DNA of 64,000 nt from an uncultured Phycisphaerales bacterium (lineage in GTDB: Bacteria > Planctomycetota > Phycisphaerae > Tepidisphaerales > Tepidisphaeraceae): NCBI GenBank assembly GCA_963755915.1, contig CAVWLP010000002.1:2144001-2208000 (forward strand). Reading direction: 5' to 3'. Shown piece by piece: positions 8,958 to 52,605 of this stretch. Every line of letters starts with the position of its first letter. The first letter of the stretch is position 1. A program made the translations under genes and the position numbers. Under the pieces are notes generated by a model, which was given only the letters and a program-made list of their open reading frames with translations, ran no database searches and was not told the origin of the DNA.

Positions 8958-9890
8958 ATGGCTCAGCGCCGGGGCTTTGACGGCAAAATCGACCCACGGA
9001 TGGCAACATCCCGCCTGGCATCGATCGGATTGCTTTTTAGGAAGGCCGCGTCGGAATGGCGCCAGGACAACGCCCTGCGGCTCTCGGCGGCGGTTTCCTT
9101 TTATACCGTCTTGTCCTTGGCGCCGCTGTTGGTCATCGTCATCAGAGCCATGGGAATCGCCCACGCCAGGCAATTTGCCCGCGAGCAGATCATCAGGCAG
9201 GCCACAAACCTGATGGGTACACAGGCGGCCGATGCGGTCAAGCCAATCATCGATAGCAGCGCCACCCAGGGCATCGGCTTTCTGGCAACGGCAATCAGCA
9301 CGGTCGTTTTGCTATTCTCCGCCACCAGCGTCTTCATTGAGTTGCAAGATTCAATGAACAGCATCTGGGGAGTGGAACTCAACGCACCCAGGGCAAACCG
9401 CGCCGAAAAAGCCGTGCTTACGTTTATCCGCGCACGCCTCCTGTCGCTGGCGATGGTCTTTGGCCTCGGCTTTCTGCTCATCTTCTTCATATTCGTCAGT
9501 GGAATTCTCACGGCCTTCCAACATCATATTGCCGACTTCGATCGATGGCCGGCCTATCTGACCAGTACGGCAATTTCTTGCGCTGTGGAATTCACGCTGT
9601 TCGGCGCCATATTCAAGTTCCTGCCGAACGTGCGGCTGGGATGGAAAAACGTCTGGCATGGGGCGTTGATCGCCGTCATTCTGTTTGGTGCCGGCAGATT
9701 TGGGCTGGCGATTTATTTCAAATATGCCCGCAACAACAACGTGTATGGCGCGGCCAGTTCCCTGCTGGCGGTATTGACCTGGATCTATTACTCGTCTTTC
9801 AGCCTCTTCTTCGGGGCCGAATTCACAAAGGTCTGGACCCGGCGATACGATCCGACTCATGCATCGCCCAGGCGTCACGCGGCACAATGA
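8958..9890 (+). CDS. YihY/BrkB-family membrane protein
   Basis: DNALRLSAAVSFYTVLSLAPLL, LQDSMNSIW and YGAASSLLAVLTWIYYSS motifs. Confidence 0.9.
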   Translation: MAQRRGFDGKIDPRMATSRLASIGLLFRKAASEWRQDNALRLSAAVSFYTVLSLAPLLVIVIRAMGIAHARQFAREQIIRQATNLMGTQAADAVKPIIDSSATQGIGFLATAISTVVLLFSATSVFIELQDSMNSIWGVELNAPRANRAEKAVLTFIRARLLSLAMVFGLGFLLIFFIFVSGILTAFQHHIADFDRWPAYLTSTAISCAVEFTLFGAIFKFLPNVRLGWKNVWHGALIAVILFGAGRFGLAIYFKYARNNNVYGAASSLLAVLTWIYYSSFSLFFGAEFTKVWTRRYDPTHASPRRHAAQ

Positions 9891-10198
9891 CGCAACGTAG
9901 GCGGAGGCGTCGCCCAACCCCCAAAGGCCAATTCGCTCCGGCTAGGGATGTCGTTGGCACATCGCTCGCGAACGATGCGGACTTCACGCGGGCCGAATCG
10001 AAATGACGCCCTCGCCCGCTGATGCTCCAATTCACGTCTAACACCGACGGTTGAGTGCTCCTCTCCACGGAAGACAGCGGTGCCAGAAAGCCGTTGTCTT
10101 CTGAGGTGGAAAATGCCGGTCGAACTTTTATGGCGCGTGATACGATTTCCGGGGGAAGGTAAGTTGTGCAGGTCGAGGGCAATGTCGAGAATACCAGG

Positions 10199-11152
10199 AT
10201 GAACGCTTCCGGCGGAGAAGATCTTGCACCCGTTCCTCAGCCCGTTCTTGCGCCACTTACGAGCGCGGCGATTTTTCTCGTTGTCTGTATCAAGCCGGAC
10301 AACGAAAGCCAGGCAACGGTCCGTTCATTCTGCGGCGAGCTGCCGGGCGTTTTCCGGGCCGTGGATTTTCGTCGTGTTGAAGGGGGACTCTCTTGTGTTG
10401 TGGGGTTCGGATCGGATGCTTGGGATAAGTTGTTCGGCACACCACGACCAGCCGAGCTTCATCCTTTTCGCGAGATTCGATCGGGGGATCGCCATGCCAT
10501 TTCCACGCCAGCCGACGCGGTGTTTCACATCCGCGCCAAGAGAATGGATCTGTGTTTCGAGCTGGTCACCGAAATCATGCAACGGATAGGTGGAGCGGTG
10601 TGTGCGGTTGATGAAACCCACGGCTTCCGCTATTTCGATGACCGTGATCTGTTGGGCTTTGTCGATGGGACAGAGGATCCGCGTGGTGAGGTCGCTCTGA
10701 ACGCTGCCCTGGTTGCCGAAGAAGACGCTCAGTTTGCAGCCGGAAGCTATGTCATCATTCAAAAATACCTGCATGACATGAGTCGGTGGAATTTGCTTTC
10801 TATTGAGGAGCAGGAGCGCATCATTGGACGCAAAAAGCTTTCGAATATAGAGCTGAGCGATGCGGTGAAACCTAGCAACGCCCACAATGCGCTGACGACA
10901 ATTGTGGAGAACGGAAAAGAGGTCAAGATTCTGCGGGACAACATGCCGTTTGGCAAGCCCGGTAGCGGCGAATTCGGAACGTACTTTATCGGCTACAGCC
11001 GATCGCCGCGGATCACCGAGCAGATGCTGGAAAACATGTTCGTTGGCCGTCCGTCAGGCAACTATGATCGACTTTTGGATTTCAGCCGGGCGGTTACTGG
11101 AAGCCTGTTTTTTGCCCCGTCAGCGACATTCCTCGAGAGCATTGGTCATTGA
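10199..11152 (+). CDS. DyP-type peroxidase
   Basis: RDLLGFVDGTEDP, QKYLHD, ILRDNMPFG and DRLLDFS motifs. Confidence 0.92.
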   Translation: MNASGGEDLAPVPQPVLAPLTSAAIFLVVCIKPDNESQATVRSFCGELPGVFRAVDFRRVEGGLSCVVGFGSDAWDKLFGTPRPAELHPFREIRSGDRHAISTPADAVFHIRAKRMDLCFELVTEIMQRIGGAVCAVDETHGFRYFDDRDLLGFVDGTEDPRGEVALNAALVAEEDAQFAAGSYVIIQKYLHDMSRWNLLSIEEQERIIGRKKLSNIELSDAVKPSNAHNALTTIVENGKEVKILRDNMPFGKPGSGEFGTYFIGYSRSPRITEQMLENMFVGRPSGNYDRLLDFSRAVTGSLFFAPSATFLESIGH

Positions 11153-48789: not shown

Positions 48790-49206
48790 CTAAGGATTTC
48801 CGGCCAACCAATTCTCCGTTTGAACTTCCTTCAGCGCCGAAAAGTCCTGATCGGAAGTCACCAGGCTCAGATTCATCTGCCGGCACAATGCGGCCAGAAT
48901 CATGTCTACTTGTGACAGCACGCGTCCTCGCTGCTTCAGGTCGTGATGGATAGCGCCGTAATACTGTGCCGTTACGCGGTCAATTGGCCAGATTCGAACC
49001 TGCCGCAGTAGGCGCTCCAAGTTCAAACGATAGGCCTCGGGGTGGCTAACCTGCTGGATTCCCGCCTCAATCTCACACAGGACTGGAACGCACGTCCCGA
49101 TCTTGTTTCCACTGGGACGGAGCTCCGCGATTCTCTTCCGAACCATCGAACCCGGCGTCACCGCGTGACCCACGTGATTCGTGTCGAGCAGATAGCCCGA
49201 CGTCAC
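48790..49206 (-). CDS. vapC: VapC PIN-domain toxin
   Basis: YLLDTNH, E, DMILAA and LVTSDQDF motifs. Confidence 0.9.
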   Translation of the reverse strand: MTSGYLLDTNHVGHAVTPGSMVRKRIAELRPSGNKIGTCVPVLCEIEAGIQQVSHPEAYRLNLERLLRQVRIWPIDRVTAQYYGAIHHDLKQRGRVLSQVDMILAALCRQMNLSLVTSDQDFSALKEVQTENWLAGNP

Positions 49207-49463
49207 GGCAGCCCCCACTCGCGGCGTACCACGTTCTTGCTCTCGCGTTCGATCTCTTCCAGTGCTTTGCGAAACCGTTCGTGCTCGCCCGCCGGTACTC
49301 GCGCCACGGCCTCGTCCAGTTCCGTCGCCCACTGATCGATCTTCGCGCCGCTGGCGCTGCCATCAGGCTGTTCGATGATCAATTCCTGTCCCTCCCGCCA
49401 TTCGGACGGGAGCGGTTCGATCGGCTCGATGCGACCATTCTGAATAACCGCCTTTATTGTCAT
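49203..49463 (-). CDS. Putative antitoxin
   Basis: MTIKAVIQNGRIEPIEPLP; stop overlaps the vapC start (GTGA). Confidence 0.8.
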   Translation of the reverse strand: MTIKAVIQNGRIEPIEPLPSEWREGQELIIEQPDGSASGAKIDQWATELDEAVARVPAGEHERFRKALEEIERESKNVVRREWGLP

Positions 49464-49562: not shown

Positions 49563-50342
49563 GTGCTCATCCAGTTCCAGAACACGCAGGAAGACTTCAA
49601 GGAGCTTGGCGACGCCATCACGGCCGCCCGCCGCCCCGTCAATTCGCCCATGCAGATCGTCATCCTCGTCGCCGTTTTCGGGGTTTACTACTTCGTCACA
49701 CGTTATCTATGGATTAAAGCGGGAGACCTGGACGGCCAGAATGCCTGGATCAACATGTGGATCGCCATCGTCGCCTTCGGCTTCACCTGGCTCGGCATCT
49801 CCCTCCCCTCCAGCTTCCGGGCCCGCCGATTCCCATGGCTTACCGGCCGCCAGGTCGTCTCCCTCTCCACCTTCCTGGGCCTCATCGGCGCCCTCCTCTT
49901 CGAGCACTGGCTCAACCACAAGTTCAACCCCAAGGCCCACGCCGACACCCTCACCTGGCAAGTCCTCCTCCCCCACAGCATCTGGCTCACGATCATGTTC
50001 TATGTGGCCTGCATCGGCGCCTACAACCACAGCAAGTCTCTGCCACGCCATTGGCAAAACCGCCCCGACCTCCATCGCCATCAGTCGGTCGATATCTCAG
50101 CCCAAGGCGTAGTCTTCTCTGACACTGAGACCCGGCGGGAATATCACTGGCCCGCCTTTGTAAAGGGAGAGGAGACACGGCACCTGTTTCTGCTCTTTAC
50201 CAGCGAGCACATCGGGCTGATGCTGCCCAAGAGGGCCTTTGACTCCGATGAGCAGATGGAGGCGATGCGGAATTTGATGAAGCTGATTCCCAAATCCGAA
50301 ACCCGCGGGTTCGCGGTCCTCCCGGCGGCCAAAGCCGCCTAA
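49563..50342 (+). CDS. Membrane protein with YcxB-like C-terminal domain
   Basis: Several TM helices; YHW...ET..LFLL...LPKRAF. Confidence 0.75.
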   Translation: MLIQFQNTQEDFKELGDAITAARRPVNSPMQIVILVAVFGVYYFVTRYLWIKAGDLDGQNAWINMWIAIVAFGFTWLGISLPSSFRARRFPWLTGRQVVSLSTFLGLIGALLFEHWLNHKFNPKAHADTLTWQVLLPHSIWLTIMFYVACIGAYNHSKSLPRHWQNRPDLHRHQSVDISAQGVVFSDTETRREYHWPAFVKGEETRHLFLLFTSEHIGLMLPKRAFDSDEQMEAMRNLMKLIPKSETRGFAVLPAAKAA

Positions 50343-50473
50343 GAATTTCGAACCCGCCCAGAACCCCCAGTAACCTTTCCCAACAAGCCTGAGCCGGGCC
50401 GTCCCCGGCCCGATCTTCCGCCTTTCCGCGTCCACACCAAATGCTATCGCTTTCTCTTTCTTCTATGGCAACA

Positions 50474-50531
50474 TTGTCTCTTCTTGCGCTCTTGGCGACT
50501 TAGCGGTTAAAAATCTTTCTAACCGCCAAGA
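50474..50531. repeat. Palindromic repeat split by the IS110 element (remainder at 52017-52040)
   Basis: Left arm ttgtctcttcttgcgctcttggcgacttagcggtt is complementary to the reconstructed aaccgccaagacgccaagagcgccaagaaagacaa. Confidence 0.8.
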
Positions 50532-50642
50532 AACTATGAAGCCGAGCCTTTCTCGGGACGTGAACGGGGTCAAAATGCCCCAAGTATGAACGAGCGTACC
50601 GCGTAGGTCGCTCAAACGTCTTTTTTGAGAAAGGACTCGGCA

Positions 50643-51686
50643 ATGCGAATTCTCGCTTTGGACCTGGGAAAGAACAAGAGCGTTTTTGTGGATTATGTCA
50701 CCGGCGGTGGAGAAAGAACGTTCGGCAAGATCGGCACCAATGCCCACGAGGTGCAAAAACTACTCGAGCGGGTGCGTCCGGATCGACTGGTCATCGAGGC
50801 CGGTCCGGCGGCAGGATGGGTTTGTGATCTGGCGGAGCGGAACAATGTTCCCGTCCAGGTGGCCAATGGCAACGATGAACGCTGGCGCTGGAAGACGGTG
50901 AAGGAGAAGAGTGATCGTAAAGACGCGCTGAAGATGGCGGCGATGTCGGAGATGGATTCGCTGCCGACGGTGCACGTGCCCAAGGCATCGGTTCGGCAGT
51001 GGCGTTCATTGATTGAATACAGACACGGCCTGGTGGATCGCCGCACGGTGCTCAAGAACTCGATCCGATCAATCTACGAGCGGCAGGGTTTGTATTTGCC
51101 CTCGGCGACCAAGGCGTGGACGAAAGCGCGACTGGAGGAAATGAGGAAGGAAGCAGCGGCCGCATCGGCGGAAGATCTGTGGCTGTTTCAGATCGGTTGT
51201 GAGGTGGCGCAACTGGAGCACCTGGAGAAGCAGATCGAAACTGTCGAAAGCAAGCTTCAGGAGTTGGGCCAGGCCAACAAAGCGGTGAAACGATTGCAGG
51301 AGGTGCCCGGCGTTGGTCCGCGGCTGAGCGAGGCGGTGGCGGTGATCATTGATGATCCCAGGCGATTCAAGAATGCACGTCAGGTGGGATGTTACGTGGG
51401 TCTGACGCCGCGGCGCTGGCAGAGCGGCGACAGCGATCGCCAGGGGCGGATCAGCAAGGCAGGCAACGCGCTGCTGCGGGAGTTGCTGGTGGAGGTGGCG
51501 TGGCTGGGGGTTCATCGCAATACGTGGATGAAGGACGTGTACGAGAGGGTTCTACGTGACAGCGAGAAGCGCAAGAAGATCGCGATTGTTGCGGTAGCCA
51601 GGAGATTACTGGTGAAGCTGTGGGCGATGCTGCGGGACGGAACCCGATGGAGAGAACCCCAGCGATCGCTGACGGCGGCCACTTGA
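50643..51686 (+). CDS. IS110-family DEDD recombinase/transposase
   Basis: ALDLGK, IEAG, KSDRKDA, VPGVG, YVGLTP..QSG, GRISKAGN and AIVAVARRL motifs. Confidence 0.95.
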   Translation: MRILALDLGKNKSVFVDYVTGGGERTFGKIGTNAHEVQKLLERVRPDRLVIEAGPAAGWVCDLAERNNVPVQVANGNDERWRWKTVKEKSDRKDALKMAAMSEMDSLPTVHVPKASVRQWRSLIEYRHGLVDRRTVLKNSIRSIYERQGLYLPSATKAWTKARLEEMRKEAAAASAEDLWLFQIGCEVAQLEHLEKQIETVESKLQELGQANKAVKRLQEVPGVGPRLSEAVAVIIDDPRRFKNARQVGCYVGLTPRRWQSGDSDRQGRISKAGNALLRELLVEVAWLGVHRNTWMKDVYERVLRDSEKRKKIAIVAVARRLLVKLWAMLRDGTRWREPQRSLTAAT

Positions 51687-51699
51687 AAATCGAAAAGGC

Positions 51700-51990
51700 G
51701 ATGACTGTCCCGACAAGTCGGTACAGGCGATGGAGTATCTCCCCTCCGGAAGACACCGTGTCAGAAAGCCGTTGTCTTCTGTGCAGGGGATTGAGTAGAG
51801 TTGAAGTGAAGTGGAATTGACGCGTTCGTGCAGGTTGAATGAGCAAGGCCAGACCCCGGTTGGCGTCTTAAGCTTCAAAGCTTGCCGCTAAGAATAGGGC
51901 TGGCCATTTGTACAGTTGAATAGGCCCGCCGCCAGGCGAGAGCACTGAATAGAAGGCTCACCCAATCGACCGCATGAGCGATCAACGCCC
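51700..51990 (+). ncRNA. Predicted bridge/seek RNA of the IS110 element (ends uncertain)
   Basis: Stem 51847-51856/51897-51905 encloses target-matching segments 51860-51869 and 51885-51893 around hairpin 51870-51883. Confidence 0.75.
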
Positions 51991-52139
51991 CTTGACAAGG
52001 CTCGGCTCATAGAAGACGCCAAGAGCGCCAAGAAAGACAAAGAAAACGCCCCGCTTCGGGGCGTGGCTATCAATCGAGCCGACCGGCTGTTTCTGATCCG
52101 GCCCCTCTCGGCAGAAATGCCTGATTCAGTCGGCGGCCA

Positions 52140-52349
52140 TTAATTCGCCCGCACCGCCTCAAATCCATCGCACCCGCTCGCGGGGGTCACCTTGAGATGC
52201 AGCGAGGCGTGCCTGGGATGCGCACAATCATCGACAAACGTCTCCGGCGCCTTACGACTCGTGCGAATCTCGACCAGCTTGGAATCCTTCGAATGCTCTT
52301 CGCCAAAATGAGTGCACAGCCCGCATTGTCCGCTATGAAGTTGCAACAT
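52140..52349 (-). CDS. Small four-Cys protein
   Basis: AAGGAG RBS; QCGLCTHF...DCAH...VTPASGCDGF. Confidence 0.7.
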   Translation of the reverse strand: MLQLHSGQCGLCTHFGEEHSKDSKLVEIRTSRKAPETFVDDCAHPRHASLHLKVTPASGCDGFEAVRAN

Positions 52350-52605
52350 GATTAGCTCCTTGAAAATGCCATCTAGTCCAGTCGAATTATCGAATCCGAA
52401 CCGCCCAAAGTCCACGCGAAAACCGCCGCATTGCAAAGTGAGAATGAGTCGCAATCTGCCTGTAAAGCCGGTATTCACGAGTCGACTGAACTCGTCAAAG
52501 TCCGCCCGCTTCGCTTGAGGACGCGGAGAGCCGTTCGAGAGCGCTCACGGGGAGCAAGCTCGCCGGCTACACGCTGGTGCGCAGATGGGTCAGGATTTTG
52601 TTTTT

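Follow-up and report, generated by a model that had tools for sequence, protein, structure and literature searches.

Repetitive extragenic palindromic (REP) sequences are occupied by mobile elements such as IS621 of Escherichia coli. According to two sources on the IS110 family, members of the IS1111 group carry subterminal inverted repeats of 7-17 bp (PMC11208160) and encode a transposase of 330-350 aa with a GL-P----S(T)G motif, the longer non-coding region lying downstream of the transposase gene (tnp) (PMC11187229); the subterminal repeats and the long downstream region separate IS1111-type from IS110-type elements (PMC11187229; PMC11208160). In the guide RNAs of the group (seekRNAs), the match to the top strand of the target precedes that to the bottom strand (PMC11187229), the two matches adjoining or overlapping where the element is inserted, and donor binding often takes place in a multi-loop (PMC11208160). 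The present analysis concerns an insertion of this kind in a stretch of 64,000 nucleotides (hereafter the window, in which all plain positions are counted) from the genome of an uncultured Phycisphaerales bacterium. The DNA between positions 50532 and 52012 is very probably an insertion sequence that belongs to the IS1111 branch, looks active, has as yet no name and chooses its site by an RNA guide, and it interrupts one arm of a palindromic repeat. The parts of the locus are given below.

50474-50508, no strand assigned: upstream arm of the palindrome, intact but degenerate, with 32 of 36 alignment columns complementary to the reconstructed right arm.
50509-50520, no strand assigned: loop of the palindrome, aaaaatctttct.
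50521-50531, plus strand: left half of the target, AACCGCCAAGA, the same beside all nine copies, with the probable core AG at 50529-50530.
50532-52012, plus strand: IS1111-type insertion sequence, 1481 bp between two AAGA (1485 bp with one AAGA counted), present in nine copies.
50534-50550, plus strand: left subterminal inverted repeat, CTATGAAGCCGAGCCTT, with matches in 16 of 17 columns when aligned to the reverse-complemented right end.
50643-51686, plus strand: transposase gene, 347 aa, with an alternative TTG start at 50625.
51997-52012, plus strand: right subterminal inverted repeat, AAGGCTCGGCTCATAG.
52013-52040, plus strand: right half of the target arm, AAGACGCCAAGAGCGCCAAGAAAGACAA, with AAGA at 52013-52016 and AG at 52014-52015.

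The motif AAGA is present at 50528-50531 and again at 52013-52016, and joining of the flanks at a single AAGA gives a 35-mer, AACCGCCAAGACGCCAAGAGCGCCAAGAAAGACAA, which differs from the reverse complement of 50474-50508 by two mismatches and two single-base gaps. This alignment scores 26, the maximum in 2000 shuffles being 14, and an inverted-repeat search found the outer arms (50474-50501 and 52013-52040) to be 82% complementary over 28 nt without gaps. The claim of the first-pass annotation that a deletion from AAGA to AAGA restores the palindrome arm is therefore upheld, with its coordinates and letters correct, and the restoration is not a matter of chance, since the same junctions (CCGCCAAGA followed by AACTATG, and CTCATAG followed by AAGACGCCAA) are found in 9 of 9 copies in the genome. 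The genome, of 6.63 Mb in three contigs, holds nine copies of the element, each of 1481 bp with identical tails and 99.2-100% identical over the aligned stretch, all of them inserted between CCGCCAAGA and CGCCAAGAG. Position 51049 is T in the window copy and C in contigs from three metagenome runs, which agrees with a one-residue difference between the window copy and most of the others. Other copies in unrelated sequence, which the first-pass annotation had named as a refutation, were not seen, 9 of 9 being in the same sequence. The empty alleles likewise agree with its reconstruction: the uninterrupted 18-mer is found 15 times exactly, 29 times with at most one mismatch and 36 times with at most two, while the empty 15-mer CCGCCAAGACGCCAA, which spans the reach of both guide loops described below, has 22 exact occurrences and its reversed control has none.

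The 347-aa frame carries both domains of the IS110 family, the N-terminal DEDD/RuvC-like PF01548 (9.5e-10; 38.9 bits, cut-off 29) and the C-terminal PF02371 (2e-24), and scores 215 bits, the cut-off being 140, with the NCBIfam equivalog for RNA-guided transposases of the IS110 family (NF033542). In the PDB it matches the transposases of ISCro4 (3e-18) and IS621 (1e-16), the alignment being significant only at residues 188-339, in the C-terminal part, and GLTPRRWQSG of the translation is aligned to GLTPRRYESG of ISCro4. The subterminal inverted repeats, CTATG(A)AGCCGAGCCTT, are 16/17 nt long; the left one begins 2 nt inside the AAGA boundary and the right one ends at the boundary. Non-coding DNA amounts to 326 nt downstream of tnp (51687-52012) versus 111 nt upstream (50532-50642). 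The IS1111 traits found in the element thus comprise the subterminal repeats, the downstream region, the length of 347 aa, the GL-P----S(T)G motif and the order of the seekRNA matches. The predicted product is an IS110/IS1111-family DEDD transposase whose placement in the IS1111 branch is made by these traits, and PF01548/PF02371, NF033542, the subterminal repeats and the downstream non-coding region bear out the IS1111-type recombinase first proposed. A second, distant IS110-family element, 35% identical over residues 198-327 of the window transposase, is present in the same genome in six copies (C2:149342, 276461, 1386809, 1812714 and 3857632; C3:1157505).

The non-coding tail downstream of tnp contains two conserved modules, which are made up as follows.

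51847-51905, plus strand: target-binding module of seekRNA/bridge-RNA type, a stem GGCCAG/CTGGCC around two loops and a small hairpin.
51860-51869, plus strand: 5' loop of this module (T loop), TTGGCGTCTT.
51870-51883, plus strand: inner hairpin between the T and B loops.
51885-51893, plus strand: 3' loop of this module (B loop), CCGCTAAGA.
51906-51962, plus strand: second conserved module, putatively donor-binding, consisting of AGTTGAATAGG, a hairpin and CTGAATAGAAGG, with ATAGAAG at 51949-51955.

The T loop TTGGCGTCTT is the reverse complement of the right flank AAGACGCCAA over 10 nt, a match found for 1 in 20000 random genomic 16-mers, while the B-loop sequence CCGCUAAGA is the same as the left flank CCGCCAAGA save for a single U-G wobble. 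The two matches overlap on AAGA in the target, and the top-strand match lies 5' of the bottom-strand match. Folding of the 330-nt tail gives z = -4.0, and in an alignment of five sequences (RNAalifold) the outer stem keeps six pairs in 5 of 5, every pair with compensatory changes and none broken. As judged from sequence and fold, the tail encodes a stem-loop resembling a seekRNA or bridge RNA that is predicted to read both halves of the target. In the second module AUAGAAG equals the right-end tip ATAGA plus AG, and in a relative with 51% transposase identity AUAGGAG equals the tip of its own right end, ATAGG, plus AG; the AUAGAAG of 51906-51962 may thus tentatively be taken as the guide for the left donor.

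A search for related loci yielded six loci, and four relatives of the element serve as natural controls. In what follows G000 denotes the genome of the window and other G numbers denote related genomes.

G001, 90% transposase identity: four copies; T loop TTGGCGCTCT, B loop unchanged; 4 of 4 inserted after the second AAGA of the same arm, CAAGACGCCAAGA then GCGCCAAGA.
G011, 72% identity: 15 matches, of which 12 were fetched; T loop GTTGGCTT, B loop AGGCCAGA; inserted in a different repeat.
L065, 51% identity: one copy, whose T loop and right flank match over 8 nt; an empty site was not seen.
L034, 45% identity: one copy, whose T loop and right flank match over 10 nt; the left flank is missing.

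In a comparison of five T loops with five right flanks, the matches of the loops to their own flanks measured 10, 10, 8, 8 and 10 nt, and no match to another flank was longer than 7 nt. The 90% relative differs by three bases in the T loop (TTGGCGCTCT for TTGGCGTCTT) and is inserted one 8-nt unit further along the same arm, where its unchanged B loop still fits, the repeat arm being an internal tandem of CGCCAAGA. The 72% relative (loci L033-L060; L102 1478-1500) targets CAGGCC-AG-CCARC, a dispersed repeat that has no sequence in common with the repeat of the window and is present at 47 sites of the G011 genome, the reversed control giving 0. Some copies of this relative have identical right flanks of 31-50 nt and differing left flanks.

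The covariation of loops with flanks bears upon the possibility that the recombinase recognises a hairpin or cruciform shape, as REP-associated or IS200/IS605-type enzymes do, the matches in the tail being incidental. Full palindromes are indeed present at 6 of 9 copies, and PMC11187229 describes some IS1111 members from targets that could fold, attC sites and REPs among them. Against this, no partner arm is recognisable within 90 nt upstream of the other three copies (C2:2523682, C2:684593 and C3:759409), the loops co-vary with the flanks in four relatives, including one whose target is unrelated in sequence, and the 8-bp shift inside a single hairpin follows the three-base change in the T loop of the 90% relative. 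Recognition of shape is accordingly regarded as highly improbable. The first-pass annotation's description of a palindromic arm as the target needs a corresponding qualification: the exact site does lie in the arm, but the specificity stems from about 15 nt read by the RNA of the element and the palindrome is not required, since three of the nine copies lack a recognisable partner arm.

Still less credible is the explanation that the shared flanks (left aaccgccaaga, right aagacgccaagagcgccaagaa) are part of the mobile unit, so that the halves of the repeat travel with the element. It draws on the fact that 9 of 9 copies share 11-12 nt to the left and 12-22 nt to the right, and on the circumstance that target bases of IS110-family elements are sometimes recorded as element ends (PMC11187229). 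The uninterrupted sequence, on the other hand, occurs 22 times in the genome and also in genomes of the genus in which no transposase relative was found, and the extra similarity stops at a distance that varies from copy to copy and tracks the palindrome family, not the element. The weakest explanation, that AAGA is a 4-bp target-site duplication left by the staggered cuts of a cut-and-paste transposase, may practically be set aside: AAGA does stand once on each side and singly in empty sites, which for one element is formally equal to such a duplication, but the enzyme is a DEDD/RuvC-type recombinase and the overlaps among relatives measure 4, 4, 1 and 2 nt, all explained by an AG that also exposed the empty sites of the 72% relative (from 1 to 47 hits).

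With the AAGA thus read as a shared crossover sequence, the relatives help to narrow its core. If the conserved ends are held fixed, the overlap varies as above in the four relatives, and a common AG fits all of them; the AAGA overlap then reads as A+AG+A, the target bases on either side of AG being by coincidence the same as those of the donor. An empty site for G011 constructed with fixed ends, CAGGCCAGAAGCCAAC, gave one chance-like hit, and a gapped pattern gave 1 hit versus 4 control hits; this construct was dropped after a real empty member, CAGGCC-AG-CCAGG, was found in that genome. The pattern with an AG core, ACAGGCCAGCCARC, has 47 hits in G011 (control 0), 4 in G000 (control 6) and 3 in G001 (control 7). 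When an AG core is assumed, the circle junction becomes CTCATAGA-AG-AAACTATG, identical for G000, G001 and G011. The core of the crossover is therefore probably the AG inside AAGA.

The recombinase is a DEDD (RuvC-like) enzyme, and its predicted seekRNA or bridge RNA is encoded in the 3' non-coding tail of the element. On the mechanism published for the family, the 5' loop would pair with the top strand of AG and the right flank and the 3' loop with the bottom strand of the left flank and AG. The complex of recombinase and RNA would then join the circular element (CTCATAGA-AG-AAACTATG) with CCGCCA-AG-ACGCCAA in a single orientation. The circular intermediate, the binding of RNA by the protein, the strand exchange at AG and any benefit of the harbour are proposed by analogy with that mechanism. 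Computation, for its part, has established the family, the copy number, the site specificity, the empty sites, the complementarity of loops and flanks and the covariation among relatives.

Several observations weigh against RNA-guided insertion by an active element. Neither a circle junction nor an excision product nor an RNA end was seen; the 18-mer of the junction has 0 hits in the assembly, and a circle-type back-joint was not found in the contigs of four public runs (Logan contigs only). The single skip joint in these contigs, from 50517 to 52013 with 19 other letters, derives from another variant of the palindrome and was rejected as an empty allele of the locus. A contig from an RNA library spans 51646-51850, which is not a demonstration of transcription. 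The assignment of the RNA rests on the present alignment of five sequences, those of G000 and G001 being closely related to each other, because no model of Rfam 15 recognises the tail; the interval 50000-52600 gave only a chance-level C/D-box match of 18.7 bits, the gathering score being 39. A guide for the right donor was not identified, there being no convincing complement to AG plus AAACTATG in the tail and only AGUU or AUAG, of 4-6 nt, fitting the left end. Among the relatives, that with 51% identity is a single copy for which no empty site was seen, and that with 45% identity has no left flank because its contig ends. The scan of the integrated element for sigma-70-like promoters gave 0 sites, and a promoter formed at the circle junction would be weak at best, with TTGACA, a spacer of 17 or 19 nt and best -10 candidates matching at 3 of 6 positions. 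The hexamer concerned is the following.

51992-51997, plus strand: TTGACA, a perfect -35 hexamer facing outward at a distance of 15 nt from the right end, kept also in the relatives with 90% and 72% identity.

That it serves in a promoter across the junction is an assumption, and such a hybrid promoter is not obligatory, as shown by ISPpu9 (PMC12288879).

The repeat that receives the element is a palindrome of about 70 bp made of three CGCCAAGA units, each arm of which contains the target sequence CCGCCA-AG-ACGCCAA. A blastn-short search with the arm gave 49 matches at E < 0.01, which fall into 17 paired loci. The loops of empty members measure 11-16 nt (for example ataagattttt), and the upstream arm of the window copy is a degenerate version of the family consensus. 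No palindrome holds two elements. The family is small, with about 30 loci and not hundreds; when compared with REP sequences and bacterial interspersed mosaic elements (BIMEs), the imperfect palindrome and the dispersal are present and the copy number is low for a REP family. Two matches to the Y1 transposase family (PF01797) in the genome, at G000:C3:1125127-1125471 and C3:576500-576694, could be REP-associated transposases. At C2:2525176-2525227 a hairpin-rich insert of about 52 nt, acttcgatgagctctcttcgagcctgagcctcagagccgaaggcagtcgagc, interrupts a repeat arm after AAGAG beside the copy at C2:2523682-2525162; an insert of this type is also present near C3:1305828 and a similar piece adjoins a copy in G001. 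The insert could represent a second small repeat, either mobile or mosaic.

Of 13 genomes of the genus, 11 contain the 18-mer with at most one mismatch and none contains the reversed control, whereas at E <= 1e-40 only four of the 13 (G000, G001, G007 and G011) yielded a transposase relative; in G010, for example, the repeat has 25 matches and no such relative was found. Since the repeat is present in genomes of the genus in which the search gave no transposase relative, it is a host sequence exploited by the element. By a crude measure genes are avoided: open frames of 200 aa or more, which take up 86.8% of the genome, contain 8 of the 22 empty sites and 3 of the 9 occupied ones. The dispersal of the repeat over about 30 loci thus offers the element many equivalent landing sites, mostly extragenic. 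The idea of a multi-copy safe harbour, put forward in the first-pass annotation, stands insofar as the repeat is dispersed, enriched outside long open frames and present in genomes in which the element was not found, while the harmlessness of insertion to the host is presumed.

The tail of the element also contains a block that is not part of the guide.

51716-51799, plus strand: block resembling a host small RNA, UCUCCCCUCC followed by the hairpin GGAAGACACCG/CGUUGUCUUC; 84.2 bits with covariance model R1; accessory module, not guide.

The block is absent from the tails of the 72%, 51% and 45% relatives and, as a piece of 85 nt, is common to 43 other places in the genome at 84-93% identity. 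With the covariance model R1, built from seven variants of the block, 52 sites were found in G000: nine in copies of the window element, 31 and nine in two IS21-like families and three solitary ones. It is located at the 3' ends of the IS21-like families (L019 700-1590 and L012 649-1620, from the C2:3978793 and C2:3329375 regions), where the IstB frame (PF01695) runs on through the block with conserved tails ...RRST(A/G)GDEG(C/L)SPPEDT.... One solitary copy of the element-borne type (10036-10120, 81.7 bits) is situated in the window between a BrkB-like gene (8958-9890) and a gene for a Dyp-type peroxidase (10166-11152), about 45 nt upstream of the latter.

Beyond this genome, the R1 model matches 31 of 36 other genomes of the bacterial family (30 of 35 without the unpublished G014) and 0 of 24 from other families of the class. 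A chromosomal form was aligned from 24 copies in 24 genomes chosen from the R1 matches (G000:C3:786215-786293, that is L067 66-144; L076-L078 and L080-L099). It has a GCGCC/GGCGC hairpin, a promoter-like site in most of the 24, the seed CAUUUUCUCCCCUCC invariant in 24 of 24, and an 11-pair hairpin followed by a U run, which is paired in 100% of cells with compensatory changes at five pairs, a result reached by 0 of 500 shuffles. Six of the small-RNA loci had no match in Rfam, and nothing relevant was found among the papers listed in a literature search on planctomycete small RNAs, judged by titles and abstract openings. The chromosomal form looks like an undescribed, family-wide small RNA of about 75 nt with an anti-Shine-Dalgarno-like seed, and the mobile elements carry the seed and the hairpin of this RNA without the U tail. 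Two other readings of the block were rejected: for a C/D-box or kink-turn, the box-like letters are not kept in the IS1111 copy, while a peptide is unlikely, as the chromosomal form has every seed position unchanged in 24 of 24 and is placed between a promoter-like site and a terminator. It is conceivable, though doubtful, that the block is a captured piece of the host small RNA with which three unrelated element families imitate or sequester a regulatory RNA of the host or the partner of that RNA, thereby controlling their own expression or disturbing a host regulon; if true, this would be convergent piracy of a host small RNA by mobile elements.

The insertion lies between convergent genes, a YcxB-like gene ending at 50342 on one side and, on the opposite strand beyond the element, a 112-aa frame (52140-52478) with no Pfam match, followed farther on by a Bax-inhibitor-like gene; a terminator-like hairpin is present at 52046-52064. 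Upstream of the locus on the minus strand (48790-49463), a PIN-domain frame (48790-49332) overlaps an 86-aa frame without a Pfam match (49203-49463), a layout which resembles a VapBC-type toxin-antitoxin pair.

Among the systems already described, ISPa11 of Pseudomonas aeruginosa shares with the window element an IS1111-type transposase, a downstream seekRNA region, a fixed position in a chromosomal REP and the same order of matches (PMC11187229). The window element differs in phylum, in target sequence and in a far smaller repeat family (about 30 loci), and is known here computationally. In ISEc11 and ISXne4, whose transposases are 72% identical, the seekRNA stem is likewise conserved and the target loops are changed to fit their own flanks (PMC11187229); in the present 90% pair the re-direction covers only 8 bp in the same arm and is brought about by a three-base change in one loop.

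ISPpu9 and ISPpu10 of Pseudomonas putida are also IS110-family elements in REP sequences, and for ISPpu9 PMC12288879 describes AG as the dinucleotide at which recombination takes place and, downstream of tnp, a small-RNA module (ssr9) that also exists as orphan copies at other places in the genome. ISPpu9 differs from the window element in belonging to the IS110 group, in having no subterminal repeats and an upstream guide, and in that ssr9 is flanked by element-like boxes and moves alone, whereas the extra block of the window element resembles a conserved host RNA and is common to unrelated IS21-like elements. With the IS621 and ISCro4 bridge recombinases (PDB 8wt6, 9t56) the window element shares a homologous C-terminal domain and an internal loop reading both strands around a dinucleotide core; the position of the guide and the order of the loops are reversed, as in IS1111, and the donor-binding part is not a simple internal loop.

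The RNA-guided mechanism, the occupation of REP sequences and natural re-direction by loop replacement are thus already known, and the current picture of the family is unchanged by these findings; the lineage is new and the re-direction by 8 bp unusually fine. RNA-guided IS1111 elements and the targeting of repeats are hereby extended to a poorly studied planctomycete lineage, which also provides a natural experiment in which three guide bases correspond to an 8-bp shift of insertion with the second loop still valid. The pairs of guide and target, with both empty and occupied sites, are ready test cases for the programming rules and the definition of the core, here probably AG.

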